A DNA stretch of 64,000 bases, taken from the sequence record OQ223305.1; one strand, written 5' to 3'. A model generated the notes under the pieces. That model saw nothing but the letters and a program-made list of their open reading frames with translations. It searched no databases and was not told where the DNA came from. This document shows positions 6,183-63,851 of this stretch, piece after piece. The DNA comes from Escherichia phage EO1. Position 1 is the first letter of the stretch. Every line of letters begins with the position of its first letter. The position numbers and the translations under genes were made by a program.

Positions 6183-6184
6183 AT

Positions 6185-7295: not shown

Positions 7296-7307
7296 AAATA
7301 ATAAATA

Positions 7308-7337: not shown

Positions 7338-7811
7338 ATGTTATTGACTGGCAAATTATATAAAGAAGAAAAACAGAAATTTTATGATGCACAAAACGGT
7401 AAATGCTTAATTTGCCAACGAGAACTAAATCCTGATGTTCAAGCTAATCACCTTGACCATGACCATGAATTAAATGGACCAAAAGCAGGAAAGGTACGTG
7501 GATTGCTTTGTAATCTCTGCAATGCCGCAGAAGGTCAAATGAAGCATAAATTTAATCGTTCTGGCTTAAAGGGACAAGGTGTTGATTATCTTGAATGGTT
7601 AGAAAATTTACTTACTTATTTAAAATCCGATTACACCCAAAATAATATTCACCCTAACTTTGTTGGAGATAAATCAAAGGAATTTTCTCGTTTAGGAAAA
7701 GAGGAAATGATGGCCGAGATGCTTCAAAGAGGATTTGAATATAATGAATCTGACACTAAAACACAATTAATAGCTTCATTTAAGAAGCAGCTTAGAAAGA
7801 GTTTAAAATGA
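7338..7811 (+). CDS. 49: endonuclease VII (Holliday junction resolvase), gp49
   Basis: 157 aa; MLLTGKLYKEEKQKFYDAQNGKCLICQRELNPDVQANHLDHDHEL matches T4 endo VII as recalled. Confidence 0.85.
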   Translation: MLLTGKLYKEEKQKFYDAQNGKCLICQRELNPDVQANHLDHDHELNGPKAGKVRGLLCNLCNAAEGQMKHKFNRSGLKGQGVDYLEWLENLLTYLKSDYTQNNIHPNFVGDKSKEFSRLGKEEMMAEMLQRGFEYNESDTKTQLIASFKKQLRKSLK

Positions 7812-9625
7812 CAATTGAAAAAGAAATTGAAGGATTGATTCATAAAACTAATAAAGACCTTTTAAACGAGAATGCTAATAAAGATTCTCGTGTTTTTCCA
7901 ACTCAACGGGACCTTATGGCTGGTATTGTGTCTAAACACATTGCCAAAAATATGGTCCCGTCTTTTATTATGAAAGCGCATGAAAGCGGAATTATTCATT
8001 TCCACGATATTGATTATTCCCCTGCTCTTCCATTTACTAATTGTTGTTTAGTAGATTTAAAAGGAATGCTTGAGAACGGATTTAAGCTTGGTAATGCGCA
8101 GATTGAAACTCCTAAATCAATCGGTGTTGCTACTGCAATTATGGCACAAATTACTGCACAGGTTGCTTCCCATCAATATGGCGGAACGACTTTTGCGAAT
8201 GTAGATAAAGTACTTTCTCCTTATGTTAAACGCACCTATGCAAAACATATTGAAGATGCAGAAAAATGGCAAATCGCTGATGCGTTGAATTATGCTCAAT
8301 CTAAAACAGAAAAAGACGTATACGATGCATTCCAAGCTTATGAATATGAAGTAAATACTCTCTTTAGCTCAAACGGACAAACACCTTTTGTAACAATTAC
8401 ATTTGGTACAGGAACTGACTGGACTGAACGAATGATTCAGAAAGCAATTCTGAAAAATCGTATTAAAGGTCTTGGTCGTGATGGGATAACTCCTATTTTC
8501 CCTAAACTTGTTATGTTCGTTGAAGAAGGTGTTAATCTTTATAAAGACGACCCGAACTATGATATTAAGCAGCTTGCTTTAGAGTGCGCAAGCAAAAGAA
8601 TGTATCCTGACATCATTTCGGCTAAGAACAATAAAGCTATCACCGGCTCATCTATTCCTGTTTCTCCAATGGGTTGTCGTAGTTTCTTGAGCGTATGGAA
8701 AGATTCGACTGGCAATGAAATTCTTGATGGACGTAATAATCTCGGTGTTGTAACACTGAATCTTCCTCGTATCGCATTAGATTCTTATATTGGAACACAG
8801 TTCAATGAACAGAAATTTGTTGAATTATTCAATGAACGAATGGATTTATGTTTTGAAGCTTTGATGTGTAGAATTAGTTCCTTAAAAGGAGTTAAAGCGA
8901 CTGTTGCTCCTATTCTTTACCAAGAAGGTGCATTCGGGGTTCGTCTTAAACCTGATGACGATATAATTGAGTTATTTAAAAATGGCAGAAGTTCAGTGTC
9001 TCTAGGATACATTGGTATTCACGAATTAAATATTCTTGTCGGTCGTGATATTGGACAGGAAATTTTAACTAAAATGAATGCTCGTCTTAAACAGTGGACT
9101 GAAAGAACTGGGTTTGCTTTTAGCTTGTATTCTACTCCTGCTGAAAACCTTTGTTATCGCTTCTGTAAACTTGATACCGAAAAATATGGAAGTGTAAAGG
9201 ATGTTACCGATAAAGGTTGGTACACTAACAGTTTCCATGTTTCAGTAGAAGAAAATATTACTCCGTTTGAAAAGATTTCTCGCGAAGCACCATATCATTT
9301 CATTGCGACAGGTGGTCACATTTCTTATGTTGAACTTCCAGATATGAAAAATAACTTAAAAGGTCTTGAGGCTGTATGGGATTATGCTGCACAACATTTA
9401 GACTATTTTGGTGTTAATATGCCAGTAGATAAATGTTTTACATGTGGAAGTACCCATGAAATGACTCCTACTGAAAACGGATTTGTTTGTTCTATTTGTG
9501 GAGAAACTGATCCTAAAAAGATGAACACAATAAGAAGAACATGTGGTTATTTGGGAAATCCGAACGAACGCGGATTTAATCTCGGCAAAAATAAAGAAAT
9601 CATGCATAGGGTTAAACACCAATGA
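7808..9625 (+). CDS. nrdD: anaerobic ribonucleoside-triphosphate reductase NrdD (605 aa), uninterrupted
   Basis: 605 aa; C-terminal glycyl-radical region (RRTCGYLG) and Zn-ribbon cysteines (CFTCGS...CSICG); no intron or intron-encoded endonuclease ORF interrupts it. Confidence 0.9.
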   Translation: MTIEKEIEGLIHKTNKDLLNENANKDSRVFPTQRDLMAGIVSKHIAKNMVPSFIMKAHESGIIHFHDIDYSPALPFTNCCLVDLKGMLENGFKLGNAQIETPKSIGVATAIMAQITAQVASHQYGGTTFANVDKVLSPYVKRTYAKHIEDAEKWQIADALNYAQSKTEKDVYDAFQAYEYEVNTLFSSNGQTPFVTITFGTGTDWTERMIQKAILKNRIKGLGRDGITPIFPKLVMFVEEGVNLYKDDPNYDIKQLALECASKRMYPDIISAKNNKAITGSSIPVSPMGCRSFLSVWKDSTGNEILDGRNNLGVVTLNLPRIALDSYIGTQFNEQKFVELFNERMDLCFEALMCRISSLKGVKATVAPILYQEGAFGVRLKPDDDIIELFKNGRSSVSLGYIGIHELNILVGRDIGQEILTKMNARLKQWTERTGFAFSLYSTPAENLCYRFCKLDTEKYGSVKDVTDKGWYTNSFHVSVEENITPFEKISREAPYHFIATGGHISYVELPDMKNNLKGLEAVWDYAAQHLDYFGVNMPVDKCFTCGSTHEMTPTENGFVCSICGETDPKKMNTIRRTCGYLGNPNERGFNLGKNKEIMHRVKHQ

Positions 9626-10092
9626 ATTACGATAGATTTTATCCCTGTGATTTTGTGAATGGCCCTGGATGCAGGGTCGTTCTTTTCGTTACAGGTTGTT
9701 TGCATAAATGTGAAGGGTGTTATAATAAATCAACATGGAATGCTAGAAATGGTATTCCATTCACTGGAGAGACACTAGAGCAATTAATTGAATGTTTGAA
9801 TAATGATTATATAGAAGGATTAACTATAACTGGGGGTGACCCTCTTTATCCTGATAACAGAGACGTGATTCACTCTGTGGTTCAAACAGTAAAAAATCTT
9901 TATCCCAATAAAAGCATTTGGTTGTGGACAGGACATAAGTTTGAAGATATTAAACAACTAGAAATGCTTAAATATGTTGATGTTATTATTGATGGGAAGT
10001 ATGAAAAAAATCTTCCGACTAAAAAGCTGTGGCGAGGATCAGATAATCAGCGACTTTGGTCAAATACCGATGGGGTGTGGACACATGATTAA
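9622..10092 (+). CDS. nrdG: anaerobic RNR activating protein NrdG (radical SAM)
   Basis: 156 aa; cysteine cluster GCLHKCEGCYNK near the N-terminus; follows nrdD with overlapping stop/start. Confidence 0.85.
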   Translation: MNYDRFYPCDFVNGPGCRVVLFVTGCLHKCEGCYNKSTWNARNGIPFTGETLEQLIECLNNDYIEGLTITGGDPLYPDNRDVIHSVVQTVKNLYPNKSIWLWTGHKFEDIKQLEMLKYVDVIIDGKYEKNLPTKKLWRGSDNQRLWSNTDGVWTHD

Positions 10093-14390: not shown

Positions 14391-14435
14391 TTTATAAATT
14401 TTTGGTAAAATAAACCAAAACAAAGAGGATATTAA

Positions 14436-15638
14436 ATGAAAGTATGTATTTTTATGGCTCGAGGTCTTGAAGGTTGTGGTGTAACAAAATTCTCACTCGA
14501 GCAACGTGATTGGTTTATTAAAAATGGTCATAAAGTGACTTTGGTTTATGCTAAAGATAAATCATTTACTCGTAACTGTGCACATGATTATAAATCATTT
14601 TCAATTCCGGTTTTATTGGCAAAAGAATACGATAAAACACTTAAGCTGGTAAATGATTGTGATATTCTAATTATCAATTCAGTTCCTGCTACTTCAGTTG
14701 AAGAAGACACTATTAATAACTATAAAAAAATTATTGATAACATTAAACCTTCTGTTCGTGTTGTAGTTTATCAACATGACCATTCTTCTCTTTCTTTGCG
14801 CCGAAATTTGGGATTAGAAGAAACTGTTCGTCGAGCTGATGTTATTTTTAGCCATTCTGATAATGGTGATTTTAATAAAGTTCTGATGAAAGAGTGGTAT
14901 CCAGAAACTGTTTCTCTGTTTGATGATATTGAAGAAGCACCGACCGTATATAACTTTCAGCCTCCTATGGATATTGCGAAGGTTCGGTCAACTTACTGGA
15001 AAGATGTTTCTGAAATTAACATGAATATCAACCGTTGGATTGGTCGTACGACTACATGGAAAGGTTTTTATCAGATGTTTGATTTTCACGAAAAACATCT
15101 TAAACCTGCAGGACTAAGTACTATTATGGAAGGTCTGGAACGTTCTCCAGCATTCATTCCTATTAAAGAAAAAGGAATTCCATATGAGTATTATCGTCTT
15201 CATCAAGTAGACCAAATTAAAATTGCTCCTAATTTGCCAACGCAAATTCTCGACCGTTATGTAAATAGCGAAATGCTTGAGCGCATGAGTAAATCCGGAT
15301 TTGGTTATCAGCTGAGTAAATTAGATAAAAAATATCTACAGCGTTCTTTAGAATACACTCATCTCGAGCTTGGTGCATGCGGAACAATTCCAGTATTTTG
15401 GAAATCTACTGGCGAAAATTTAAAATTCCGTGTTGATAATACTCCTTTGACCTCGCATGATAGCGGTATCATTTGGTTTGATGAAAATGATATGGAATCA
15501 ACATTTGAACGTATTAAAGAACTGTCATCTGACCGAGCTCTTTATGACCGTGAACGTGAAAAAGCTTATGAATTTTTGTATCAGCATCAAGATTCAAGCT
15601 TCTGCTTTAAAGAACAGTTTGACATTATTACAAAATAA
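14436..15638 (+). CDS. a-gt: DNA alpha-glucosyltransferase (hmC glucosylation), 400 aa
   Basis: 400 aa; sequence closely resembles T4 alpha-gt as recalled (…CIFMARGLEGCGVTKFSLEQRDWFIKNGH…); flanked by terminators. Confidence 0.8.
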   Translation: MKVCIFMARGLEGCGVTKFSLEQRDWFIKNGHKVTLVYAKDKSFTRNCAHDYKSFSIPVLLAKEYDKTLKLVNDCDILIINSVPATSVEEDTINNYKKIIDNIKPSVRVVVYQHDHSSLSLRRNLGLEETVRRADVIFSHSDNGDFNKVLMKEWYPETVSLFDDIEEAPTVYNFQPPMDIAKVRSTYWKDVSEINMNINRWIGRTTTWKGFYQMFDFHEKHLKPAGLSTIMEGLERSPAFIPIKEKGIPYEYYRLHQVDQIKIAPNLPTQILDRYVNSEMLERMSKSGFGYQLSKLDKKYLQRSLEYTHLELGACGTIPVFWKSTGENLKFRVDNTPLTSHDSGIIWFDENDMESTFERIKELSSDRALYDREREKAYEFLYQHQDSSFCFKEQFDIITK

Positions 15639-15677: not shown

Positions 15678-15818
15678 ATGATATTTCTTGGATATGTGAT
15701 ACTTTTTCTTGCATTTTATCTATTCACTAGAGCATGTTGGATTGGGTTCTTTAGCACACCAGATGGATTTATTTCAATAATTTTATTTTGCATTTCAATG
15801 ACGGTTCTTGATATATGA
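15678..15818 (+). CDS. hypothetical small membrane peptide (46 aa)
   Basis: ATG 15678 is 9 nt after ACGGAG; hydrophobic; stop overlaps the homing endonuclease start. Confidence 0.3.
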   Translation: MIFLGYVILFLAFYLFTRACWIGFFSTPDGFISIILFCISMTVLDI

Positions 15819-16438
15819 AAAAATATATAACTTATTTAACAATATATAGTGGAGATAAACTTCCTCCTTTTTATATTGGATCTACGTCTTTAGATAGGCA
15901 TTTAGCTGGATATCATGGTTCAGTTTTATCTAAAAAGTATAAGAAAATTTATAATAAAGAGCTTTCAGATAATCCTCACTTATTTGATTCATGCATTTTA
16001 GCTGAATTTGATACGCGTGAAGAAGCTATTAAATGCGAGTTATATTATCAACGATTGCATGATGCAGTTAAAAATCCATTATTCTTTAATATGTCATATG
16101 CTGCTCCAGAAGGTTCATTTGGAAGAGATAATAAAGGACAAAATCATCCATTATATGGTTCTCATAATTGTAAAGGAAATATACATTCACATGATCCATT
16201 AACAGGAAAATCTGCCTTTTTGCCTTATATTCCAGAAGGTTATGTAAAAGGAAGGTCAAATAAATTTAAAGCTTCATCACATAATAAAGGTAAAAAATGG
16301 TATAATAACGGAGTTAAGCAAATGTTATGTCATGAACCTCCTGGTCCTGAATGGACAAAAGGAAAAATTAAAGAACTGGTTTCAAAAGCAGCTAAATTAG
16401 GATGGAAAAGACACCATGAAAATACTAAACTTGGGTGA
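15815..16438 (+). CDS. freestanding GIY-YIG homing endonuclease (Seg-like)
   Basis: N-terminal YITYLTIYSG...FYIGSTS (GIY-YIG), conserved R/E/N positions, C-terminal NHPLYG motif; very AT-rich; 3' end overlaps the gene 47 start. Confidence 0.7.
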   Translation: MKKYITYLTIYSGDKLPPFYIGSTSLDRHLAGYHGSVLSKKYKKIYNKELSDNPHLFDSCILAEFDTREEAIKCELYYQRLHDAVKNPLFFNMSYAAPEGSFGRDNKGQNHPLYGSHNCKGNIHSHDPLTGKSAFLPYIPEGYVKGRSNKFKASSHNKGKKWYNNGVKQMLCHEPPGPEWTKGKIKELVSKAAKLGWKRHHENTKLG

Positions 16439-17435
16439 TTGGCATTTAGGCGTTAAAGCTGATGATGAGTGGATTCGCGGTATTCAAATTGATGGAATTA
16501 AGCAAGCGATAGAATATTCTAAGAAAAATGGAATTACTGTATGGATTCAATATGGTGATATTTTTGATGTGCGAAAAGCAATCACACATAAAACTATGGA
16601 GTTTGCCCGTGAAATAGTTCAAATGCTTGATGACGCTGGAATCACATTACATACTATTGTAGGAAATCACGATCTCCACTACAAAAATGTAATGCATCCA
16701 AATGCCTCTACTGAGCTTTTGGCTAAATATCCTAATGTTAAAGTATATGATAAGCCTACTACAGTAGATTTTGACGGATGTTTGATTGATTTGATTCCTT
16801 GGATGTGCGAAGAAAATACTGGTGAAATTCTTGAGCACATCAAAACTTCATCTGCTTCTTTTTGTGTTGGTCACTGGGAACTGAATGGATTTTATTTTTA
16901 TAAAGGAATGAAATCTCACGGTCTTGAACCTGATTTCCTTAAGACTTATAAAGAAGTGTGGTCTGGTCACTTCCATACTATCTCTGAGGCTGCTAACGTT
17001 AGATATATTGGGACACCATGGACACTAACTGCAGGTGACGAGAATGACCCTCGTGGGTTCTGGATGTTTGATACAGAAACAGAACGAATGGAATTTATTC
17101 CAAACAATACTACCTGGCATCGTAGAATTCATTATCCATTTAAAGGAAAAATTGACTATAAAGATTTTACAAATCTATCAGTACGTGTTATAGTAACTGA
17201 AGTAGACAAAAATCTGACGAAGTTCGAATCTGAACTAGAAAAAGTTGTGCATTCATTACGAGTTGTGTCAAAGATTGATAACTCTGTCGAGTCAGATGAC
17301 AGTGAAGAAGTTGAAGTTCAATCTCTTCAGACATTGATGGAAGAATACATTAATGCAATTCCAGACATCACTGATTCTGACCGTGAAGCACTTATTCAAT
17401 ATGCAAATCAGCTATATGTAGAGGCAACACAATGA
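16416..17435 (+). CDS. 47: recombination endonuclease subunit gp47 (Mre11-like), 339 aa
   Basis: 339 aa; phosphoesterase motifs (GDWHLG, GNHD, GHWE); followed by gp46. Confidence 0.85.
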   Translation: MKILNLGDWHLGVKADDEWIRGIQIDGIKQAIEYSKKNGITVWIQYGDIFDVRKAITHKTMEFAREIVQMLDDAGITLHTIVGNHDLHYKNVMHPNASTELLAKYPNVKVYDKPTTVDFDGCLIDLIPWMCEENTGEILEHIKTSSASFCVGHWELNGFYFYKGMKSHGLEPDFLKTYKEVWSGHFHTISEAANVRYIGTPWTLTAGDENDPRGFWMFDTETERMEFIPNNTTWHRRIHYPFKGKIDYKDFTNLSVRVIVTEVDKNLTKFESELEKVVHSLRVVSKIDNSVESDDSEEVEVQSLQTLMEEYINAIPDITDSDREALIQYANQLYVEATQ

Positions 17436-34375: not shown

Positions 34376-34388
34376 ATGTCCTCCTTAT

Positions 34389-34412
34389 TGCTTTATATAT
34401 TTATTGTATAAT
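34389..34412 (+). promoter_or_regulatory. middle (MotA-dependent) promoter candidate for gene 56
   Basis: TGCTTTA at 34389-34395, 11-bp spacer, TATAAT at 34407-34412. Confidence 0.5.
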
Positions 34413-34448: not shown

Positions 34449-34967
34449 ATGCCACATTTCAACGAATGTAGTCAACTGATCGAAGGCGCTGATAAAGCTC
34501 AAAATGAATATTGGGATATTCTCGGTGATGAAAAAGACCCGCTGCAGGTAATGCTTGACATGCAGAAATCTCTGCAAATTCGTTTAGCTAAAGATAAACC
34601 TGAATATAATCGTCATCCTGATGACTTGGCTACTGCCGGTGAAGTTGTTGATTGGTTGCGTAATCAGAAAGATTATATTGACGATGAATTCCGTGAACTT
34701 CTGACTTCTCTTGGTGGTATGAGTAATGGTGAAAAAGACGCATCTGCTGTATGGAAACCTTGGAAGTCGCAGCATGGTGAGCGTCGTGAAACTCTGATTA
34801 CTGATTTGTCTCCGCAAGACCAGTTAGAAATTAAATTTGAAATGATTGATATTCTTCATTTCGTTCTGAATATGTTCCAGGGTCTTGGTCTTACAGCTGA
34901 AGAAATCTTTAAACTTTATTACCTGAAAAATGCTGAAAATTTCGCACGTCAGGACCGAGGTTATTAA
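34449..34967 (+). CDS. 56: dCTPase/dUTPase gp56 (MazG-like), 172 aa
   Basis: 172 aa; position after 61 and a MotA-box promoter upstream. Confidence 0.7.
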   Translation: MPHFNECSQLIEGADKAQNEYWDILGDEKDPLQVMLDMQKSLQIRLAKDKPEYNRHPDDLATAGEVVDWLRNQKDYIDDEFRELLTSLGGMSNGEKDASAVWKPWKSQHGERRETLITDLSPQDQLEIKFEMIDILHFVLNMFQGLGLTAEEIFKLYYLKNAENFARQDRGY

Positions 34968-35107
34968 TGTCTCGTTTAAATAAACGTCAACTCAAAAAGT
35001 TGAATAAGAAAAGGGCGAAAGCCCTTACTGCTTTATTACGTAATGAAATAACTAAAGAAATAGACCAAGAGATTATTGAACAACTCTGGAAAGCCGCTAA
35101 ATTGTAA
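34967..35107 (+). CDS. hypothetical basic peptide (46 aa); may be non-coding
   Basis: ORF overlapping the gp56 stop; contains GGGCGAAAGCCC hairpin at 35013-35024. Confidence 0.25.
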   Translation: MSRLNKRQLKKLNKKRAKALTALLRNEITKEIDQEIIEQLWKAAKL

Positions 35108-35109
35108 GT

Positions 35110-35117
35110 TATAAATA
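35110..35117 (+). promoter_or_regulatory. late promoter (TATAAATA) for soc
   Basis: Exact TATAAATA 32 nt upstream of the soc ATG. Confidence 0.7.
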
Positions 35118-41297: not shown

Positions 41298-41558
41298 ATG
41301 ATTAACATCAATTCAAAATATTTAAATCGTCTAATAGATGGTATAAGGAAGCATACTAATAAGCAAGATAATCTCGATGTTATGGTAACAGGAGCTGAGC
41401 TCCTTCATAAGCTTTATCTTATAAGTGATACTATATTAGCAATTAAACGAATTGAAAAACAATCATATCACAGTAATACAGATACGGTAATTACACTAGA
41501 TGAAAGTGTCTGTAAATTACTAATTAAATTTGAGGAAGCTATTCGTGGAAATAACTAA
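41298..41558 (+). CDS. hypothetical protein (86 aa), member of a local paralog trio
   Basis: ORF after dda; same size class as the two following ORFs. Confidence 0.4.
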   Translation: MININSKYLNRLIDGIRKHTNKQDNLDVMVTGAELLHKLYLISDTILAIKRIEKQSYHSNTDTVITLDESVCKLLIKFEEAIRGNN

Positions 41559-44774: not shown

Positions 44775-44990
44775 ATGAAACGTAAAATTGTTCAGAATTG
44801 CACTAATGACGAATTTGAAGATGTATTATTCGATCCAGATTTGGTAGTAGTTCAAAAGGAACACACCATCAAGTTTACTCACTTGACTTCGGTTTATGTG
44901 TATGAAAAGGTTGGTGATAAACAACCAATTTACGGTGTATTTCGTGAAATTACTGAAGATGGCACAACTTACTGGAAGGAAATTTATTAA
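44775..44990 (+). CDS. hypothetical protein (71 aa)
   Basis: ATG 44775 after GAGGAAATTGTA. Confidence 0.4.
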
Positions 44991-45415
44991 TGGCTATTAA
45001 ATTTGAAGTTAATAAATGGTATCAATTTAAAAATAAACAAGCTCAAGAAAATTTTATTAAAGACCATACTGATAACGGAATCTATGCACGCCGTTTAGGT
45101 ATGCATCCTTTTAAAATTTTAGATGTTGACCATCTTGGTCGTCCTACTAAAATTGTGACATCTACTGGCACAGTTGGATATGCAACACATGGTGATATCC
45201 TTGACGAAAACTTTATCTGGCTTTCTACTACCGAAGCTGGGTTCTTTGATGAAGTGGAAAATCCATACCAGGCAGCTGAAGAGCAAGAGCAGGAAGAGAA
45301 AGAGCAAGAACAAATAGAAGATTTCACAGAATTCCCGGTCATGAAAGTTACTATTGAAAATAATGAACAGGCATGGTCTTTGTATCAGATGTTGAAAGCA
45401 CACTTTAAGGAATAA
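44990..45415 (+). CDS. hypothetical protein with acidic low-complexity segment (141 aa)
   Basis: ORF with [12 protein letters not shown] tract. Confidence 0.4.
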
Positions 45416-45417
45416 TT

Positions 45418-45594
45418 ATGCCAATGTATGATTATAAATGCCAATCCGAAGATTGCGGGCATGAATATGAAAAAATTAAAAAGATTTCTGAACGAGAAAA
45501 TGATGTTTGCCCTAAATGTCATCGTTTGTCTACTCGTCGGCCTTCTGCTCCTAAGCATGTGAATGGCGGTTTTTACGATTTACTTAAAGGGTGA
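45418..45594 (+). CDS. small zinc-ribbon protein (58 aa)
   Basis: CxxC...CPxC arrangement (YKCQSEDCGHEY...DVCPKCH). Confidence 0.4.
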   Translation: MPMYDYKCQSEDCGHEYEKIKKISERENDVCPKCHRLSTRRPSAPKHVNGGFYDLLKG

Positions 45595-45596
45595 TT

Positions 45597-45971
45597 ATGT
45601 TTAAAATCGGTAAGAAATATCGTGTTCGCGAAGGTGAAGAAAAGAAATATCTACTTTCTGCTAGTAATAGGAATGGTTCTATTAATGCCGTAATATCTAC
45701 AAGCGAATTTATCGTTGAAGATATGAAAGGTCATAATGTTACAATGATTAGTACAGCAACTAGCAGAAATGCTGGAAAAATTCTTCACAGTCTGCGGAGT
45801 GAAGTTCTAATTTATGATGAAGAATTTGACTTCTTCGAAGAAGTCACTGAAGATTTTGATTTTGAATGCACTATCACTATGAAATCTGGCGACCCTCTTT
45901 CTTTTACAGTTAAAGATGAAAGAAGTCGCTTGAGAATTATTAGTCTTCTTCAAGCCATTAAATTTGAGTGA
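45597..45971 (+). CDS. hypothetical protein (124 aa)
   Basis: ATG 45597; no recognisable motif. Confidence 0.4.
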   Translation: MFKIGKKYRVREGEEKKYLLSASNRNGSINAVISTSEFIVEDMKGHNVTMISTATSRNAGKILHSLRSEVLIYDEEFDFFEEVTEDFDFECTITMKSGDPLSFTVKDERSRLRIISLLQAIKFE

Positions 45972-45975
45972 AATT

Positions 45976-46236
45976 ATGAAATATATTAATCGTTCTATCG
46001 CAGCATTAGTATTAGCAGTGTCTTTAGCAGGATGTACTGATGCTGATAATGCAACCAAAATTTTGTCATCAAGCGGTTTTACTAATATTGAAATCACTGG
46101 ATACAATTGGTTCGGTTGCTCTGAAAATGATTTCCAACATACTGGATTTCGTGCTATTGGACCTACTGGGCAGAAAGTAGAAGGAACAGTATGTTCTGGG
46201 TTGTTCTTTAAGGATTCAACTATTCGTTTTAAATAA
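45976..46236 (+). CDS. hypothetical lipoprotein (86 aa)
   Basis: Signal peptide with lipobox LAGC (MKYINRSIAALVLAVSLAGCTD); followed by a terminator. Confidence 0.45.
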   Translation: MKYINRSIAALVLAVSLAGCTDADNATKILSSSGFTNIEITGYNWFGCSENDFQHTGFRAIGPTGQKVEGTVCSGLFFKDSTIRFK

Positions 46237-46237
46237 A

Positions 46238-46254
46238 AGGCCTTCGGGCCTTTA
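46238..46254 (+). terminator. rho-independent terminator upstream of gene 39
   Basis: AGGCCTTCGGGCCT 46238-46251 followed by TT. Confidence 0.6.
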
Positions 46255-46305
46255 GCTTTATGATTACCGGAGTATAATATTCCCGAAACCAAACGAGGAT
46301 AAGTG

Positions 46306-48123
46306 ATGATTAAGAATGAAATTAAAATTCTGAGCGATATTGAACATATCAAAAAGCGTAGTGGCATGTACATTGGCTCTTCTGCTAATGAAATGCATGA
46401 GCGCTTTCTGTTTGGTAAATGGGAAAGTGTTCAGTATGTACCTGGTCTTGTTAAGCTTATTGATGAAATTATCGATAACTCAGTCGATGAAGGTATTCGT
46501 ACTAAGTTTAAATTCGCGAATAAAATTAATGTTACCATTAAAAATAATCAGGTAACAGTTGAAGATAACGGTCGTGGTATTCCACAAGCGATGGTTAAAA
46601 CACCTACCGGTGAAGAAATTCCTGGTCCAGTTGCTGCTTGGACTATTCCAAAAGCGGGTGGTAACTTTGGTGATGATAAAGAACGTGTCACCGGTGGTAT
46701 GAATGGTGTTGGTTCTAGTTTAACTAACATTTTTTCTGTGATGTTTGTCGGTGAAACTGGCGATGGTCAAAATAATATTGTAGTTCGTTGTTCAAATGGT
46801 ATGGAAAATAAATCCTGGGAAACTATTCCTGGAAAATGGAAAGGAACTCGTGTTACTTTCATTCCTGATTTTATGTCATTTGAAACTAATGAGCTGTCCC
46901 AGGTTTATCTTGACATTACACTGGATCGTCTCCAGACACTTGCTGTCGTTTATCCTGATATTCAATTTACCTTTAATGGTAAAAAGGTTCAGGGCAATTT
47001 TAAGAAATATGCACGACAGTATGATGAACATGCTATCGTTCAAGAACAAGAAAATTGTTCTATTGCGGTTGGTCGTTCACCGGATGGATTTCGTCAATTA
47101 ACTTACGTGAATAACATTCACACTAAGAATGGTGGTCATCACATTGATTGTGTTATGGATGATATTTGTGAAGACCTTATTCCACAAATCAAACGTAAAT
47201 TCAAAATTGATGTAACTAAAGCACGCGTTAAAGAATGTTTGACTATCGTTATGTTTGTTCGTGATATGAAAAACATGCGATTTGATTCTCAAACTAAAGA
47301 GCGTTTGACTTCTCCATTTGGCGAAATTCGTAGTCATATTCAACTTGATGCTAAAAAGATTTCACGCGCTATTCTAAATAATGAAGCAATTTTAATGCCG
47401 ATTATTGAAGCTGCGTTGGCTCGTAAATTGGCGGCAGAAAAAGCAGCAGAAACTAAAGCAGCTAAAAAGGCTTCTAAAGCTAAGGTTCATAAACATATCA
47501 AAGCGAATCTCTGTGGTAAAGATGCTGACACTACTCTTTTCTTGACTGAGGGTGATTCTGCTATCGGATATCTTATTGATGTTCGTGATAAAGAACTTCA
47601 TGGTGGTTATCCATTGCGTGGTAAAGTTCTCAACAGTTGGGGTATGTCATATGCTGATATGCTTAAAAACAAAGAACTATTTGATATTTGCGCAATCACT
47701 GGATTAGTTCTTGGTGAAAAAGCTGAAAACTTGAATTATCATAATATTGCTATTATGACCGATGCTGACCATGATGGTTTAGGAAGCATTTATCCTTCTC
47801 TGCTCGGATTTTTTAGTAATTGGCCAGAATTGTTTGAGCAAGGACGAATTCGCTTTGTCAAAACTCCTGTAATCATCGCTCAGGTCGGTAAAAAACAAGA
47901 ATGGTTTTATACAGTCGCTGAATATGAGAGTGCTAAAGATGCTCTACCTAAACATAGCATCCGTTATATTAAAGGACTTGGCTCTTTGGAAAAATCTGAA
48001 TATCGTGAGATGATTCAAAATCCAGTATATGATGTTGTTAAACTTCCTGAGAACTGGAAAGAGCTTTTTGAAATGCTCATGGGAGATAATGCTGACCTTC
48101 GTAAAGAATGGATGAGCCAGTAG
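46306..48123 (+). CDS. 39: DNA topoisomerase II large (ATPase) subunit gp39, uninterrupted 605-aa form
   Basis: GHKL ATPase motifs (IDNSVDEG, GRGIP) and TOPRIM region (LTEGDSA) in one ORF; 605 aa, i.e. not split into 39 + 60. Confidence 0.9.
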   Translation: MIKNEIKILSDIEHIKKRSGMYIGSSANEMHERFLFGKWESVQYVPGLVKLIDEIIDNSVDEGIRTKFKFANKINVTIKNNQVTVEDNGRGIPQAMVKTPTGEEIPGPVAAWTIPKAGGNFGDDKERVTGGMNGVGSSLTNIFSVMFVGETGDGQNNIVVRCSNGMENKSWETIPGKWKGTRVTFIPDFMSFETNELSQVYLDITLDRLQTLAVVYPDIQFTFNGKKVQGNFKKYARQYDEHAIVQEQENCSIAVGRSPDGFRQLTYVNNIHTKNGGHHIDCVMDDICEDLIPQIKRKFKIDVTKARVKECLTIVMFVRDMKNMRFDSQTKERLTSPFGEIRSHIQLDAKKISRAILNNEAILMPIIEAALARKLAAEKAAETKAAKKASKAKVHKHIKANLCGKDADTTLFLTEGDSAIGYLIDVRDKELHGGYPLRGKVLNSWGMSYADMLKNKELFDICAITGLVLGEKAENLNYHNIAIMTDADHDGLGSIYPSLLGFFSNWPELFEQGRIRFVKTPVIIAQVGKKQEWFYTVAEYESAKDALPKHSIRYIKGLGSLEKSEYREMIQNPVYDVVKLPENWKELFEMLMGDNADLRKEWMSQ

Positions 48124-48152
48124 TTTACTTTACCACAAGGATGTGGTATAAT
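48123..48152 (+). promoter_or_regulatory. early promoter cassette (second copy of the 3036-3065 type)
   Basis: GTTTAC 48123-48128, CCACAAGGATGTGG 48133-48146, TATAAT 48147-48152; differs from the 3034-3065 copy by one base. Confidence 0.65.
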
Positions 48153-48177
48153 TAATTGGGCAAATGAGGATATTGAA

Positions 48178-48381
48178 ATGAAATCATATAGAGTAAATTT
48201 AGAACTTTTTGATAAAGCAGTTCATCGAGAATATAGAATCATTCAACGCTTTTTCGATATGGGAGAAGCCGAAGAATTTAAAAACCGCTTTAAAGATATT
48301 AGAGATAAAATTCAATCCGACACCGCAACTAAAGATGAACTACTAGAAGTTGCTGAAGTTATTAAGCGTAATATGAATTAA
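48178..48381 (+). CDS. hypothetical protein (67 aa), rIIA.1 position
   Basis: ORF between gene 39 and rIIA behind a promoter cassette. Confidence 0.4.
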
Positions 48382-48391
48382 TGAGGAAATT

Positions 48392-50569
48392 ATGATTATC
48401 ACCACTGAAAAAGAAACAATTCTTGGTAATGGTTCTAAATCAAAAGCATTTAGCATCACAGCATCTCCTAAAGTATTTAAAATTCTGTCATCTGATTTGT
48501 ATACAAACAAAATTCGCGCAGTAGTCCGTGAATTGATTACCAACATGATTGATGCTCATGCACTTAATGGAAATCCTGAAAAATTTATCATACAAGTTCC
48601 TGGACGTTTAGATCCACGATTTGTTTGCCGAGATTTTGGTCCGGGTATGAGTGATTTTGATATTCAAGGTGATGATAATTCTCCTGGGTTGTATAATTCA
48701 TACTTCAGTTCATCTAAGGCTGAATCTAACGATTTCATTGGCGGATTTGGTTTAGGTTCTAAATCTCCGTTTAGTTATACTGATACGTTTAGTATTACTT
48801 CGTATCATAAAGGTGAAATTCGTGGTTATGTAGCTTACATGGATGGTGATGGTCCACAGATTAAACCTACATTCGTAAAAGAAATGGGTCCAGATGATAA
48901 AACTGGTATTGAAATCGTAGTTCCAGTTGAAGAAAAAGACTTTAGAAACTTTGCTTATGAAGTTTCTTATATCATGCGACCGTTCAAAGATTTGGCTATC
49001 ATTAATGGTCTTGACCGCGAAATTGATTATTTTCCGGATTTTGATGACTATTACGGTGTAAATCCAGAAAGATACTGGCCAGATCGCGGTGGATTATATG
49101 CTATCTATGGCGGTATTGTTTATCCTATCGATGGTGTTATTAGAGACCGTAACTGGCTAAGCATTCGCAATGAAGTGAATTACATTAAGTTTCCAATGGG
49201 TTCACTTGATATTGCTCCATCACGTGAAGCTCTTTCATTGGATGATCGCACTCGTAAAAATATTATTGAACGAGTTAAAGAGCTTAGTGAGAAAGCATTT
49301 AATGAAGATGTAAAACGATTTAAAGAATCTACATCTCCCCGTCACACATATCGTGAATTGATGAAGATGGGGTATTCTGCTCGAGATTATATGATTAGTA
49401 ATTCAGTCAAATTCACGACTAAAAATCTGTCATATAAAAAGATGCAGAGTATGTTTGAACCTGACAGTAAGTTATGTAATGCAGGCGTGGTGTATGAAGT
49501 AAATCTTGACCCTCGACTGAAGCGCATTAAGCAAAGTCATGAAACATCAGCCGTTGCGTCAAGTTATCGTCTGTTTGGTATTAATACAACAAAAATTAAT
49601 ATCGTTATTGATAATATTAAAAATCGTGTTAATATTGTCCGTGGATTAGCACATGCGTTAGATGATAGTGAATTTAATAACACTTTAAATATTCATCACA
49701 ATGAGCGTCTTCTGTTTATTAATCCGGAAGTAGAATCGCAGATTGATTTACTACCTGATATTATGGCAATGTTTGAAAGTGATGAAGTTAACATTCATTA
49801 TTTGTCAGAAATTGAAGCTTTAGTAAAAAGTTATATTCCAAAGGTAGTTAAAAGTAAAGCTCCTCGTCCTAAAGCTGCTACAGCATTTAAGTTTGAAATT
49901 AAAGACGGGCGCTGGGAAAAAGAGGAATTATTTACGCTCACATCAGAAGCAGATGAAATTACTGGTTATGTAGCGTATATGCATCGTTCTGATATTTTCT
50001 CTATGGATGGTACTACATCACTTTGTCATCCATCTATGAATATTTTGATTCGTATGGCTAATCTTATTGGCATTAATGAATTTTATGTTATTCGTCCGCT
50101 TTTACAGAAAAAGGTAAAAGAACTCGGTCAGTGCCAATGTATTTTTGAAGCTTTACGTGATTTATATGTAGATGCTTTTGATGATGTAGATTATGATAAG
50201 TACGTAGGTTATTCAAGTTCAGCTCAACGATATATTGATAAAATTATCAAGTATCCTGAACTAGATTTTATGATGAAGTACTTCAGTACAGATGAAGTTT
50301 CTGAAGAATATACACGACTCGCTAATATAGTTAGTTCATTGCGTGGTGTATATTTTAATGGTGGAAAAGATACCATCGGTCATGACATCTGGACAGTAAC
50401 TAATCTTTTTGATGTATTATCAAATAATGCTTCAAAAAACAGTGATAAAATGGTTGCTGAGTTTACCAAGAAATTCCGTATTGTTTCCGACTTCATCGGA
50501 TATCGCAACTCTTTAAGTGATGATGAAGTTTCCCAAATCGCTAAAACTATGAAGGCCCTTGCGGCCTAA
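48392..50569 (+). CDS. rIIA: rIIA protein (725 aa)
   Basis: 725 aa as T4 rIIA; N-terminal GHKL-like region; followed by rIIB. Confidence 0.85.
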
Positions 50570-54274: not shown

Positions 54275-55603
54275 ATGCAACTGAATAATCGCGATTTAAA
54301 AAGTATCATTGATAATGAAGCATTGGCTTATGCTATGTACACGGTTGAAAATCGTGCCATTCCAAATATGATTGATGGATTTAAGCCAGTTCAACGATTT
54401 GTTATTGCTCGAGCTCTTGATTTGGCACGAGGAAATAAAGATAAGTTTCACAAACTCGCTTCTATCGCAGGTGGTGTAGCGGACCTTGGATATCATCATG
54501 GTGAAAACTCTGCACAAGACGCAGGTGCTTTGATGGCTAACACTTGGAATAATAACTTTCCTCTGTTAGATGGTCAAGGAAACTTTGGTTCTCGTACCGT
54601 CCAAAAAGCAGCAGCAAGTCGTTATATTTTTGCTCGTGTAAGTAAAAATTTCTATAACGTATATAAAGATACTGAATATGCTCCGGTACATCAAGATAAA
54701 GAACACATTCCGCCTGCTTTCTATTTGCCTATTATTCCTACTGTTCTTCTTAATGGTGTTTCCGGTATTGCAACTGGTTATGCAACTTACATTCTTCCTC
54801 ATAGTGTTTCTTCTGTCAAGAAAGCTGTATTACAAGCTCTTCAAGGAAAGAAAGTAACTAAACCGAAGGTAGAATTCCCAGAATTTCGTGGTGAAGTCGT
54901 TGAAATTGACGGGCAATATGAAATTCGTGGAACATATAAGTTTACTTCACGAACTCAAATGCATATCACTGAGATTCCGTATAAGTATGATCGTGAAACT
55001 TATGTGAGTAAAATCTTAGACCCACTTGAAGATAAAGGCTTCATTACATGGGATGATGCTTGTGGTGAGCATGGTTTTGGCTTTAAAGTTAAATTCCGTA
55101 AAGAATATTCTTTGAGCGATAATGAAGAAGAACGTCATGCAAAAATTATGAAAGACTTCGGGTTGATTGAGCGTCGTTCCCAGAATATTACCGTTATTAA
55201 TGAGAAAGGAAAACTACAAGTTTACGATAACGTAGTTGATTTAATCAAAGACTTCGTCGAAGTTCGTAAAACTTATGTCCAAAAACGAATTGATAATAAA
55301 ATTAAAGAAACTGAGTCAGCTTTTCGTTTAGCTTTTGCCAAGGCACATTTCATTAAGAAAGTAATTTCAGGTGAAATCGTTGTGCAGGGTAAAACTCGTA
55401 AAGAACTGACCGAAGAACTTTCTAAAATTGATATGTATTCTTCTTATGTTGATAAACTAGTTGGAATGAATATTTTTCATATGACTTCCGACGAAGCAAA
55501 GAAACTTGCTGAAGAAGCTAAAGCTAAAAAAGAAGAAAACGAATATTGGAAAACTACTGATGTAGTTACAGAATACACCAAAGATTTAGAGGAAATCAAA
55601 TGA
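54275..55603 (+). CDS. 52: DNA topoisomerase II medium subunit gp52 (442 aa)
   Basis: 442 aa; gyrase-A-like region with active-site Tyr context; matches T4 gp52 as recalled. Confidence 0.9.
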   Translation: MQLNNRDLKSIIDNEALAYAMYTVENRAIPNMIDGFKPVQRFVIARALDLARGNKDKFHKLASIAGGVADLGYHHGENSAQDAGALMANTWNNNFPLLDGQGNFGSRTVQKAAASRYIFARVSKNFYNVYKDTEYAPVHQDKEHIPPAFYLPIIPTVLLNGVSGIATGYATYILPHSVSSVKKAVLQALQGKKVTKPKVEFPEFRGEVVEIDGQYEIRGTYKFTSRTQMHITEIPYKYDRETYVSKILDPLEDKGFITWDDACGEHGFGFKVKFRKEYSLSDNEEERHAKIMKDFGLIERRSQNITVINEKGKLQVYDNVVDLIKDFVEVRKTYVQKRIDNKIKETESAFRLAFAKAHFIKKVISGEIVVQGKTRKELTEELSKIDMYSSYVDKLVGMNIFHMTSDEAKKLAEEAKAKKEENEYWKTTDVVTEYTKDLEEIK

Positions 55604-58605: not shown

Positions 58606-59262
58606 TTATTTAGCCCTTCCTAATATTCTGGCCGCCTGAGCACATATTGATTCAAGGCGGTCATTACTTATATGATCATTTCTATACCAGTACATAGTTA
58701 TCGTTCCAGCATAGATATTATCCAAATTAAAATATGGACAACTGTACATGTAGTTTATTTCGGGAGTAGGCTTTTTAGTTGGTAAAAAAGCAAATTTTGA
58801 GTTGGAATAATAATGACGTCCATTTAAATGAACTGTATATTCATCCATAGTTTTATCAACAGGATATCCTCCAAGTGATTTTTCACTTATTGTTGAAGGT
58901 AATTTTCCTTCATATGCTATAATATCAACAAAATAGTTTAAGTTTTTAGGGCGGAAAGAATACACCGCACTAAAGTCTGCCTCAGATGATATATGAACTA
59001 TCTGGAGTTGTTCCAGGGCGACAGATTCAAAGCGTGCATTTCTTTCCTTTTCAATAATTTCACTGTATGTTTCATACTTTGATTGCTTATAGTACTCAAA
59101 GAAACTATCTCCCCTATACCAAACAATCGCCATTATAAACAAAAGAATTACGACAGCTACCCGGGAAGCAAGAACATTCCCGGTAGCGTTATCTTTGAAC
59201 AAGCGATCTAGAACACCCAACAGAATATCAGAGGGCGAAAATGATATTCTAGGTACTGCCAT
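58606..59262 (-). CDS. t: holin T (218 aa)
   Basis: 218 aa; one N-terminal transmembrane segment and large C-terminal domain; late promoter TATAAATA and AGGAGG SD upstream on the minus strand. Confidence 0.85.
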   Translation of the reverse strand: MAVPRISFSPSDILLGVLDRLFKDNATGNVLASRVAVVILLFIMAIVWYRGDSFFEYYKQSKYETYSEIIEKERNARFESVALEQLQIVHISSEADFSAVYSFRPKNLNYFVDIIAYEGKLPSTISEKSLGGYPVDKTMDEYTVHLNGRHYYSNSKFAFLPTKKPTPEINYMYSCPYFNLDNIYAGTITMYWYRNDHISNDRLESICAQAARILGRAK

Positions 59263-63100: not shown

Positions 63101-63186
63101 AATTCACCTTCGGCTAATACTGAAGCGGCAGGACGTGCTCCTGCAGTTTTGCTTCTTTTAAATTGTATTTGTTTTAAAGTAGCCAT
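60124..63186 (-). CDS. 37: long tail fibre distal subunit gp37 (1020 aa)
   Basis: 1020 aa; N-terminus MATLKQIQFKRSKTAGARPAASVLAEGELAINLKDRVLF; order 36-37-38. Confidence 0.9.
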   Translation of the reverse strand: MATLKQIQFKRSKTAGARPAASVLAEGELAINLKDRVLFTKDDQGNIIDLGFAKGGSIDGNVIHTGNYNQTGDYTLNGVFTQTGNFNLTGIARVTRDIIAAGQIMTEGGELITKSSGTAHVRFFDNNSRERGIIYAPANDGLTTQVLNIRVQDYAAGSESTYAFSGSGLFTSPEVSAWKSISSPQILTNKVITNNKSTGDYDIYSMADNVPLSESTTAINHLRVMRNAVGSGIFHEVKDNDGITWYAGDGLDTYLWSFTWSGGIKSSHSISIGLTPGNKDYSILGPSSIALGDNDTGFKWHQDGYYFSVNNGTKTFLFSPSETTSLRKFVAGYSTNGTDLTTPPTENYALATVVTYHDNNAFGDGQTLLGYYQGGNYHHYFRGKGTTNINTHGGLLVTPGNIDVIGGSVNIDGRNNASTLMFRGNTTGSSSVDNMTISVWGNTFTNPSEGNRKNVMEISDATSWMSYIQRLTTGEIEMNVNGSFESSGVTAGNRGVHTTGEISSGAVNALRIWNADYGAIFRRSEGSLHIIPTAYGEGKHGDIGPLRPFSMALDTGKVTIPDLQSSYNTFAANGYIKFTGHGAGAGGYDIQYVQAAPIFQEIDDDAVSKYYPIVKQKFLNSKAVWSLGTEINSGTFVLHHLKEDGSQGHTSRFNADGTVNFPNNVQVGGGEATIARNGNIFSDIWKTFTSAGDTTNIRDAIATRVAKEGDTMTGALWINKDAAGIVLNPPLASDSSFIRSDTAGVNNWYIGKGGANNGLGFYSYVTQGGIYITNGGDIALSPKGIEMTHVNNVRFYVHGERWTASQSGGWNDQWGLEAPIFVDHGYVGPDSYYPIIKGRSLITNQGYTTAVDFGMRRVPQNWGQAIIRVGSAENSPAAGHPQAVFEFHHDGTFYCPGNGNFNDVYIRSDDRLKINKEELENGALEKVCRLKVYTYDKVKSIKDRSVIKREVGIIAQDLEKELLEAVSKVEVDGSDVLTISNSAVNALLIKAIQEMSEEIKELKTPFFTKIARKISKYFKF

Positions 63187-63194: not shown

Positions 63195-63851
63195 TTAATA
63201 ATAGCCGAAATCTTGAACAGAATCCTTAATAACAATTTGGTCAAATCGTGGAACATGCGAGGGTTGAGATGCAGGATTCTGTGAAAAAAGGTTTGGCGCA
63301 GTTAAATTTCCTGTCATAGTGTCTCCAGAGCGTAATACCCTAGAGTTTGCGTTTGCGGTAACAATATTTATTGCTCCATCAACATAATCTTTCCGCGTAA
63401 GGTCATAATTATTTACTGGTGATAACGAAGTTACACGGATTTGTGATGCTTCAATTACGCCCTTTGAACTAATATCTCCGTTTCGCGTGTTAATTACTAC
63501 AGTTCTACCTGCTGCCCCTTGTGATGATTTAAAGCCGATACCATACCATGAAACAATATCCATATTTGTAGTATCATATGTGGCATTATCACCAGGACCG
63601 GCAAAAATGCCGTTGTCACCTGACCCAGCACCAGGAACAGTCATTCCTTTATTAAAAATTACTTTATTTAAATAAGTACCACCATTAGCTTTAGAAACGA
63701 AATCGTTATCAGTTGCTTGTGGTTTATTATATTCTGAATATATTTTAAATGATTTATAGAGTACATCGTCACCGGCTGGATTCAATGGAAAATTTCCTTG
63801 ATGCCAAATGACAGAGCCTCCAGTTGTTGAACCTACTTTTAAATCAGCCAT
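63195..63851 (-). CDS. 36: long tail fibre distal connector gp36 (218 aa)
   Basis: 218 aa; late promoter TATAAATA (rc at 63875-63882) upstream; precedes gene 37. Confidence 0.8.
   Translation of the reverse strand: MADLKVGSTTGGSVIWHQGNFPLNPAGDDVLYKSFKIYSEYNKPQATDNDFVSKANGGTYLNKVIFNKGMTVPGAGSGDNGIFAGPGDNATYDTTNMDIVSWYGIGFKSSQGAAGRTVVINTRNGDISSKGVIEASQIRVTSLSPVNNYDLTRKDYVDGAINIVTANANSRVLRSGDTMTGNLTAPNLFSQNPASQPSHVPRFDQIVIKDSVQDFGYY

Follow-up and report, generated by a model that had tools for sequence, protein, structure and literature searches.

Uninterrupted gene 39 and nrdD in T2/T6-like DNA of Escherichia phage EO1

Gene 39 and its counterparts in T2, T4 and T6

The stretch analysed here (64,000 nucleotides of Escherichia phage EO1, sequence record OQ223305.1; hereafter the window) is T2/T6-like Tequatrovirus DNA, with its orientation reversed relative to the T4 reference. 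The best phage records in the phage collection are 97-99% identical to it, with the best match changing along the window, and none is identical. Positions from 50.6 to 64 kb were examined by ORF lists together with Pfam and PHROG scans and the remainder by alignment with T4, and the genes and sites discussed below are collected in Table 1.

Table 1. Genes and empty insertion sites in the window (positions count from its first nucleotide)
Feature	Position	Strand	Evidence or description
nrdD, class III anaerobic ribonucleotide reductase large subunit	7808..9625	+	single uninterrupted ORF, 605 aa
Empty group I intron insertion site in nrdD	8316..8376	+	junction 8345/8346; T4 intron missing
nrdG, activase	9622..10092	+	Pfam Fer4_12, Radical_SAM
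Empty mobB site between a-gt.2 and a-gt	14420..14445	+	T4 38679-37817 without counterpart (blastn); MobB tblastn negative
Gene 47.1, 46 aa	15678..15818	+	tblastn 100% identity to T4 over 46 aa
Seg-like free-standing putative GIY-YIG homing endonuclease gene, 207 aa	15815..16438	+	Pfam/PHROG matches, motif columns
Gene 47, SbcD-like nuclease subunit, directly 3' of the seg-like gene	16416..17435	+	Pfam Metallophos
Empty segF site between 56 and soc	34967..35110	+	T4 16270-15610 opposite 143 nt (blastn); SegF tblastn negative
Gene 39, unsplit GyrB-like large subunit of phage topoisomerase II	46306..48123	+	single ORF, 605 aa; ATPase, transducer and TOPRIM regions
51-nt 'parental' segment, empty MobA target region	47724..47774	+	blastn break points; gene positions 1419-1469
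Gene 52, GyrA-like topoisomerase II subunit, gp39 partner	54275..55603	+	Pfam DNA_topoisoIV 9.1e-77, 259 bits

The ORF list gives gene 39 as a frame of 606 aa that starts at a GTG (46303..48123) and has no in-frame stop between 46306 and 48123; the ATG at 46306, from which a 605-aa product is read, agrees with the annotated start of T4 gp39 (MIKNEIK). Pfam searches with this product revealed HATPase_c at residues 47-149 (38.4 bits, cut-off 26.4), DNA_gyraseB at residues 250-384 (51.1 bits, cut-off 27) and TOPRIM_C at residues 519-604, the ATPase and TOPRIM regions thus lying in one polypeptide, and the metal-binding residues of the TOPRIM E...DxD signature (E415, D486 and D488) are intact and have the same surroundings as their T6 counterparts. 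The T2/T6 topoisomerase II is a two-subunit enzyme, and structures of T6 gp39 have been deposited (PDB 8YLU, 8YO1 and 8YOD; PMC11461880). Compared to T2 gp39, the window protein has the same 605-aa length and only 2 residue differences (62 of 1818 nucleotide positions differ in the gene), and the match to T6 gp39 (PDB 8ylu_C) spans residues 1-605 with 1388 bits. Domain order and metal site are alike in the three phages and the gp52 partner is encoded in the window, leaving no visible functional difference. By these features the gene 39 product is an unsplit T2/T6-type gp39, the GyrB-like subunit of a type IIA topoisomerase. The reading of gene 39 as one continuous 605-aa frame with ATPase and TOPRIM regions, put forward in a preliminary description of this DNA, is thereby borne out by the ORF list, by the Pfam domains and by colinearity with the T4, T2 and T6 proteins.

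To relate this frame to T4, we aligned the two phages at the protein and nucleotide levels and found that the gene 39 product equals T4 gp39 residues 1-473, followed by 18 residues and then by T4 gp60 residues 47-160. Both flanking parts, window residues 1-473 and 492-605, show near-identity to their T4 counterparts in gp39 and gp60, and the same enzyme is encoded. By blastn, window 45974-47723 corresponds to T4 5661-3911 and window 47775-48581 to T4 2806-2000, such that 1104 nt of T4 (3910-2807) stand opposite the 51 nt at 47724-47774. This T4 block comprises the tail of gene 39, a mobA remnant, 60.1, the head of gene 60 and the 50-nt bypass, all of which the window lacks. T4T and RB55 are T4-type phages in which mobA is intact. 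According to Bonocora et al. 2011, as cited in bioRxiv 10.1101/2022.08.31.505936, T4 genes 39 and 60 represent a MobA homing-endonuclease / 50-nt translational bypass cassette, and window gene 39 corresponds to what the latter study terms 'parental' Topo2L. The 51-nt parental segment covers the TOPRIM DxD motif and the bases immediately preceding it, a position consistent with the insert limits published there (nt 1399-1419 for the 5' end, the position directly following D490/G491 for the 3' end). Relative to T2 it differs by one synonymous base (ACC versus ACT), and a second synonymous change (TTA versus CTA) is located at 47775, one base past the segment.

None of the hallmarks of the cassette was detected in window gene 39: tblastn with the T4 mobA fragment and gp60.1 gave nothing below E = 0.7, revealing no mobA ORF or remnant; the C-terminal (gp39) and N-terminal (gene 60) extensions that belong to the cassette are absent from the protein alignment; and there is no 50-nt coding gap and no take-off GGA with stop codon, as the window reads GAT GGT TTA GGA AGC in frame. 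The T4 alignment therefore presents a fused frame devoid of the cassette, in agreement with the earlier statement that gene 39 is not split into 39 and 60 with a bypass as in T4.

nrdD, its intron insertion site and allele frequencies

The nrdD product was recognised over its full length by Pfam NRDD (1.2e-171, 572.7 bits), as well as by Gly_radical (90.5 bits) and by NCBIfam NF006732 (908.9 bits, cut-off 657), and a radical-SAM activase gene is adjacent, so that an NrdD catalytic domain, a C-terminal glycyl-radical domain and the activase are all represented. The frame aligns colinearly with spliced T4 NrdD, from which it differs by 4 amino acids and 77 nucleotides. Since the start of nrdG overlaps the stop of nrdD by 4 nt, neither mobC nor segH lies between them.

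The T4 nrdD intron (T4 45847..44815, 1033 nt), which carries I-TevII, is absent here, its junction falling at window 8345|8346. We placed the T4 splice junction by sequence (the exon ends in ...GAGT and the intron in ...ATTG); an open-frame test of 1033-nt deletions was uninformative for this placement, as every in-frame deletion stays open. Compared to the intron-bearing nrdD genes of T4 (sunY) and of the HY03 type, the host gene and the insertion point (Y-E|Y-E) are the same, but the window has no intron. A tblastn search of the window with T4 I-TevII gave a best E of 1.1, an nhmmer profile of the T4 and HY03 intron cores found nothing in the window, and no Rfam family was detected there at the gathering threshold or at E <= 1, whereas the control T4 intron was detected at 105 bits. 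Because the Rfam group I model missed a genuine HY03-type nrdD intron, the Rfam result by itself is weak evidence, and we base the absence of an intron on the colinearity with spliced T4 and on the nhmmer intron-core profile. This conclusion covers the window; td and nrdB lie outside it and could still have introns. On these grounds nrdD is, as had been proposed, an uninterrupted 605-aa frame with neither intron nor intron endonuclease, and nucleotide alignment with T4 uncovered no intron or bypass element in gene 39 or nrdD.

To see how common these alleles are, we searched 50,697 phage records. The mobA cassette occurs in 43 of about 570 gene-39 matches (about 7-8%). The flanking exons of nrdD are present in about 690 records, and about 69 of these (about 10%) carry an intron, 25 being T4-type and 44 of the divergent HY03 type, a class that was revealed by adding 100-nt exon flanks to the query and was counted separately. 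Hundreds of independent records, 95-99% identical, share the uninterrupted arrangement. Given the low frequencies of cassette and intron, the uninterrupted state is the norm and T4 the exception, as published; the lack of interruptions in gene 39 and nrdD is not unusual but the majority state among sequenced relatives, and the current counts restate the published view that the model phage T4 is atypical.

The densest synonymous divergence from T4 within nrdD is found at the intron insertion site itself, where 8 of 30 nt differ and each change is synonymous (p = 0.007 by permutation). On the 5' exon side the window has GAA, as do 18 of 18 intronless alleles sampled from IMG/VR, in place of the GAG that stands beside both intron types; on the 3' exon side 7 synonymous positions within 23 nt differ from T4. 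All 18 sampled alleles are window-like and none has the T4-type exon sequence, and the exons of the HY03-type intron are window-like on their 3' side. Because of these 8 differences from the T4 exon junction, the susceptibility of window nrdD to I-TevII is uncertain. A tentative reading, which we regard as rather unlikely, is that the intronless allele in the window, like the 18 environmental alleles sampled, may be a naturally I-TevII-refractory target, its synonymous cluster having been selected by the endonuclease to block cutting and so helping to keep the intron rare. That the gene's highest density of T4 differences coincides with the insertion site, and that T4-type exon sequence is missing from all 18 intronless alleles, is consistent with such selection, and a refractory allele would help to explain why only about one in ten sequenced Tequatroviruses has an nrdD intron. 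However, co-conversion of the flanking T4 exon together with the intron, or adjustment of that exon to pair with it, would be expected to produce such a pattern too, and the window-like 3' exon of the HY03 type suggests that sequences resembling the window represent the general background and not a particular resistant form. It is an equally simple alternative that the unusual exon flanks of T4 nrdD hitch-hiked with the intron by co-conversion.

Search for homing endonuclease genes in the window

The preliminary description also held that a free-standing GIY-YIG gene is the only homing endonuclease encoded in the window. We scanned ORFs of at least 55 aa up to position 50600 and of at least 75 aa beyond it. 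Up to 50600 the ORFs either match non-endonuclease genes of T4 or belong to a group of seven that are window-specific, and among these seven the GIY-YIG ORF alone is endonuclease-like. Between 50600 and 64000 the scanned ORFs match the T4 gene families DenB, Ndd, MotA, Arn, AsiA, T2-type gp38 and gp52; a 312-aa ORF has weak helix-turn-helix matches only, and three further ORFs (58606-59262, 60124-63186 and 63195-63851) occupy holin/tail-fibre positions and are assigned by size and position only. When the window was searched by tblastn with T4 mobA, 60.1, segF, segA, mobB, mobC and I-TevII, nothing better than E = 0.07 was obtained, and no paralogues or remnants of the T4 homing endonucleases were found elsewhere in the window. 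The mobB and segF sites are empty (Table 1), segA is absent from the window, and T4 43518-42916, the mobC region, has no window counterpart by blastn, in line with a MobC tblastn that gave nothing below E = 0.07. The GIY-YIG ORF is thus left as the sole homing-endonuclease-like gene of the 64-kb window, as the ORF scan and the negative T4 tblastn searches uphold.

This ORF matches Pfam GIY-YIG at E = 3e-4 (21.4 bits, just under the 22.6-bit cut-off), PHROG 10820 at 3.9e-94 and PHROG 314 ('homing endonuclease') at 4.5e-18; NCBIfam and PDB sequence searches returned no match. An alignment with T4 SegA, SegF and I-TevII shows no variation in the motif columns T6/Y7, Y20/G22, E75 and N92. Relative to T4, the ORF is a precise 601-nt insertion at the junction of 47.1 and 47, with its start codon overlapped by the gene 47.1 stop as ATGA and its last 23 nt overlapping the start of gene 47. 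Gene 47 differs from its T4 counterpart at 29 nucleotides, including 4 within its first 21 nt (16416-16436); these four changes are synonymous and may be candidates for self-protection. The GC content of the ORF is 0.30 versus 0.34-0.36 in the flanking genes. At least 95% identical sequences are present in 67 phage records, adjoining gene 47 in all such records listed, and T4 lacks the gene, so that an intergenic insertion is accompanied by presence/absence polymorphism among close relatives. In database records this ORF is often mislabelled as 'HNH endonuclease'.

The T-even phages are known to carry free-standing Seg (GIY-YIG) homing endonucleases, SegA-G, that engage in 'intronless homing' (PMC2988022). 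The window gene is like them in its GIY/YIG, Glu and Asn columns, its location between two conserved genes, its ATGA overlap, its lower GC content and its presence/absence polymorphism. Unlike the T4 Segs, it is orthologous to none of them (the best blastp match, to SegA, has E = 0.19) and occupies a site between 47.1 and 47 that is empty in T4. Judged from its sequence and setting, we predict it to be a Seg-like homing endonuclease gene.

Unoccupied alleles and their likely history

Whole gene 39 and whole nrdD are the usual and well-described condition in T4 relatives such as T2 and T6, whose biology is already known. From the continuity of both frames, their colinearity with T4, the absence of the elements and the database frequencies, all of them observed, we consider it about 95% probable that both genes represent ordinary alleles, unoccupied by such elements ('empty-site' or parental), of a T2/T6-like Tequatrovirus. 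Activity of the window proteins is to be expected from their near-identity to the studied proteins of T2, T4 and T6: unsplit gp39 and gp52 would form a two-subunit (A2B2) type IIA topoisomerase and, with the whole GyrB-like subunit in one polypeptide that pairs with gp52, neither ribosomal bypass nor gp60 would be needed; similarly, nrdD would be translated from an unspliced mRNA and its product would work with that of the adjacent nrdG. T4 differs through invasion by two selfish elements, the MobA cassette, which brings its own recoded copy of the target along with the 50-nt bypass, and the I-TevII group I intron. In a co-infection with a T4-like phage, the window phage would probably act as recipient and not as donor: the uninterrupted MobA target, in the part of gene 39 that encodes the TOPRIM region, would be nicked by that enzyme, nrdD might be cleaved by I-TevII close to 8345|8346, and repair from the T4 copy would then bring the element in. 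MobA nicking and cassette insertion have been reported in phage T2, as cited in the literature, and the MobA target region of the window is nearly identical to that of T2.

It is conceivable, though quite improbable, that the present state instead arose by secondary loss, an ancestor having carried the mobA-bypass cassette, the nrdD intron or both, which were later precisely removed. Such elements do decay, T4 mobA being itself a remnant, and 'hit and run' clades retain cassette-derived extensions after loss of the endonuclease (bioRxiv 10.1101/2022.08.31.505936). Moreover, Tequatrovirus genomes are mosaic, as the changing best records (97-99%) along the window illustrate, and an occupied allele could therefore be swapped for an empty one by recombination. 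However, when the cassette inserts, 55-75 nt of the parental gene are lost and a diverged copy is gained, as well as C- and N-terminal extensions (same preprint), and window gene 39 is parental and essentially T2-identical, with no trace of extensions, diverged copy or gap. At nrdD, the 5' exon GAA shared with the 18 of 18 intronless alleles, rather than the GAG of both intron types, likewise speaks against a former intron. Given the parental gene 39 sequence and the GAA exon, any loss would have been a replacement of the whole allele, which would leave the present state and function unchanged.

T4 gene 60 was once mis-annotated, before the bypass was recognised. That the continuity seen here is an artefact of assembly or frame choice, hiding recoding or a short interruption, is a reading for which we found no support and which is effectively refuted by the mechanical ORF calls that give uninterrupted frames, by gap-free residue-by-residue colinearity with the T4, T2 and T6 proteins and by the hundreds of independent records with the same arrangement at 95-99% identity.

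For annotation, the empty-site reading means that gene 39 is to be entered as one topoisomerase II large-subunit gene, without gene 60 or recoding, and nrdD as one exon; beyond such correct annotation the importance of the finding is small. The window can serve as a reference showing the MobA target and the nrdD intron site in their ancestral 'parental' state. It is also an example of T-even DNA with few homing endonucleases, having one such gene compared to six endonuclease-related elements in the same interval of T4, and this scarcity naturally suits it as a recipient in experiments on homing and marker exclusion.

Gene 39 as one undivided frame

Megablast of the gene 39 region, nrdD and the first 25 kb of the window retrieved hundreds of Tequatrovirus (T4-like, Straboviridae) records at 95-99% identity, none of them identical to the window. 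The T4 reference (NC_000866) and the window have opposite orientations, and the gene order in the window is nrdC cluster, 49, nrdD, nrdG, 55, a-gt, 47, 46, 43, uvsX, 41, 61, 56, dda, 39, rIIA, followed by rIIB, denB, ndd, 52, motA, asiA, t, 38 and 37. Three marks make it T2/T6-like rather than T4-like: the adhesin gp38 is of the T2 type; a ba-gt gene, as in T2/T6-type phages, stands where T4 has b-gt and the segA block; and the dam methyltransferase gene is missing, as T4 17725-16825 faces ~20 nt (window 34386-34407) between gene 61-side sequence and gene 56, and tblastn with T4 Dam found no match anywhere in the window. Divergence of a-gt from T4 is uneven (13-19 differences per 60 nt at gene positions ~660-900, 0-3 per 60 nt in its last 400 nt and in 47.1), indicating a mosaic recombination boundary inside a-gt.

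Features of the window and their coordinates
Feature	Coordinates	Strand	Remarks
small ORF	5967-6355		no T4 counterpart
nrdD	7808-9625	+	605 aa
small ORF	12594-12863		no T4 counterpart
a-gt	14436-15638
GIY-YIG ORF	15815-16438	+	207 aa; seg-like, between 47.1 and 47
ba-gt	27622-28470		beta-glucosyl-HMC-alpha-glucosyltransferase, 282 aa; PHROG 842, 2.4e-89
small ORF	41298-41558		no T4 counterpart
ORF upstream of gene 39	45591-45971		126 aa; PHROG 622 (unknown function)
gene 39	46306-48123	+	605 aa
gene 52	54275-55603		gp52, GyrA-like partner of gp39 (Pfam)

The preliminary description had read gene 39 as one continuous frame covering the ATPase and TOPRIM regions, and the ORF finder returned just such a frame (46303..48123), whose ATG at 46306 is the start annotated for T4 gp39. 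Pfam recognised the GHKL ATPase, the GyrB transducer and the domain after TOPRIM, PHROG 543 ('DNA topoisomerase II large subunit') matched the product end to end, and the product keeps its metal-binding residues, E415, D486 and D488.

T4 nucleotide and protein alignments bore out that the gene is not divided into 39 and 60. By blastn, T4 5661-3911 corresponds to window 45974-47723 and T4 2806-2000 to window 47775-48581; between these blocks T4 has 1104 nt, comprising the gene 39 3' tail, the mobA remnant, 60.1, the gene 60 5' part and the 50-nt bypass (together, the cassette), versus 51 nt in the window. The window protein reads as T4 gp39 residues 1-473, ENLNYHNIAIMTDADHDG, and T4 gp60 residues 47-160. 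In line with the preliminary description, this alignment showed no bypass element in gene 39: where T4 has GAT GGA TAG and then the 50-nt gap, the window continues uninterrupted with GAT GGT TTA GGA AGC. The break points, at gene 39 positions 1419 and 1470, coincide with the ends of the MobA element mapped by Manning and Atkins (5' at nt 1399-1419, 3' just after D490/G491; bioRxiv 10.1101/2022.08.31.505936).

T2 gene 39 is of equal length and differs by 2 amino acids; within the segment replaced in T4 the only difference from T2 is 1 synonymous base, and the next base past that segment also differs, again synonymously. The window protein also matches the solved chain of T6 gp39 over residues 1-605. 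MobA nicking and insertion are reported in T2. The T4 enzyme is described as the only three-subunit member of the type IIA topoisomerases (PMC11461880). The additional ORF just upstream of gene 39, between the 39.2 and 39.1 homologues, is weakly like goF-type proteins and absent from T4 at that position.

The intron site of nrdD

Likewise, nrdD is one ORF with full-length NRDD and glycyl-radical domains, and its stop lies in a 4-nt overlap with nrdG, the activase gene. T4 45849-44815 is flanked by sequence that aligns to window 6359-8343 and 8346-9642; with the T4 splice junction placed by sequence (exon end ...GAGT, intron end ...ATTG), the T4 intron is 1033 nt (T4 45847..44815) and the window junction is 8345|8346. 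Spliced T4 nrdD is equal in length to the window gene and differs from it at 77 nucleotides and 4 amino acids. Nucleotide alignment with T4 thus upheld the absence of an intron from nrdD, and tblastn with I-TevII found no match in the window, in keeping with the claim that no intron endonuclease is present.

A second, divergent group I intron occupies T4's site in Escherichia phage HY03 (NC_031047 77715-78759); it carries an I-TevII-like ORF, and its core is ~80% identical to the T4 core. An nhmmer profile built from both cores detected no nrdD intron core in the window, and no Rfam family reached its gathering threshold there, with the T4 nrdD intron detected at 105 bits as a positive control. 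The sole Rfam match at E <= 1, a 23-bit CrcZ fragment, is meaningless. The Rfam Intron_gpI model did not match the HY03 intron even at E <= 1.

The density of differences from T4 nrdD peaks exactly at the insertion site (8316-8376), where 30 nt hold 8 synonymous changes (p ~0.007 in a permutation test for such a cluster anywhere in nrdD). A degenerate-pattern search of IMG/VR found 18/18 intronless alleles to be window-like and 0 T4-like, and alleles with an intron of either type (T4 or HY03) carry GAG in place of GAA 2 nt upstream of the splice site. The cluster fits co-conversion of T4 flanks with the intron, adjustment of the exon for intron pairing, or selection of uncuttable targets, three readings that the present data do not separate.

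Frequency and expected behaviour of the empty sites

Among 50,697 phage records, ~570 matched the gene 39 region, 43 of these with the T4 cassette, and ~690 matched the nrdD exon flanks, 25 with the T4-type intron and 44 with the HY03-type. An intact gene is therefore the usual state, in some 92% of records for gene 39 and 90% for nrdD. These counts agree with published surveys of homing endonuclease genes (15 in T4, one in T2, none in several T-even genomes). The uninterrupted state of gene 39 and nrdD is thus real, but it is a known and typical trait of these phages. The observation is confirmed, and the interpretation given in the preliminary description is supported.

Both genes are continuous and their products near-identical to proteins of known biochemistry and structure; we infer from this that gp39 and gp52 would form an ordinary two-subunit topoisomerase II with no need for recoding, and NrdD/NrdG an ordinary reductase with no need for splicing. 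The two sites are 'empty' homing sites. If a phage bearing the cassette or the intron infected the same cell, they would be expected to be cut and converted in the way reported for T4 x T2 crosses. Cutting and conversion of the gene 39 site by MobA is likely, because the target is near-identical to that of T2; at the nrdD site, the same by I-TevII is uncertain.

Endonuclease genes across the window

Over the interval shared with the window, six elements of T4 are related to endonucleases (the mobA remnant, segF, segA, mobB, mobC and I-TevII), each a T4-only block in the blastn map; tblastn with each of the proteins gave no match in the window better than E = 0.07. Among all ORFs of at least 55 aa lacking a T4 counterpart up to 50600, seven were real candidates. 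The GIY-YIG ORF alone was endonuclease-like, as it was among all ORFs scanned, sustaining the claim that it is the only homing endonuclease found in the window; the remainder were the ba-gt gene and small ORFs in PHROGs of unknown function. Between 50.6 and 64 kb each ORF of at least 75 aa matches a T4 gene in position and size, most being confirmed by Pfam/PHROG scans and the holin and tail-fibre ORFs being assigned by position and size only. None of the small ORFs listed without T4 counterpart is endonuclease-like (PHROGs 2112, 3402, labelled 'antitoxin', 1822 and 4967).

The GIY-YIG ORF scores slightly below the curated Pfam cut-off and shares the Tyr, Tyr-x-Gly, Glu and Asn columns with SegA, SegF and I-TevII, yet is orthologous to none of the T4 Segs. 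Relative to T4 it is a precise 601-nt insertion at the ATGA overlap of 47.1 and 47. The ORF is poorer in GC than the genes around it and shares its last 23 nt with gene 47. It occurs at >= 95% identity in 67 phage records, adjoining gene 47 in each of those listed. Public records label the protein inconsistently, often as 'HNH endonuclease', as does PHROG 10820; this label is wrong, the motifs being GIY-YIG. The opening 21 nt of gene 47 (16416-16436), which the end of the ORF overlaps, hold 4 synonymous differences from T4 (ATA/ATT, CTA/TTA, AAC/AAT, TTG/TTA), versus 29 differences in the whole gene (1020 nt); this cluster may mark the target site of the neighbouring endonuclease or its self-protection.
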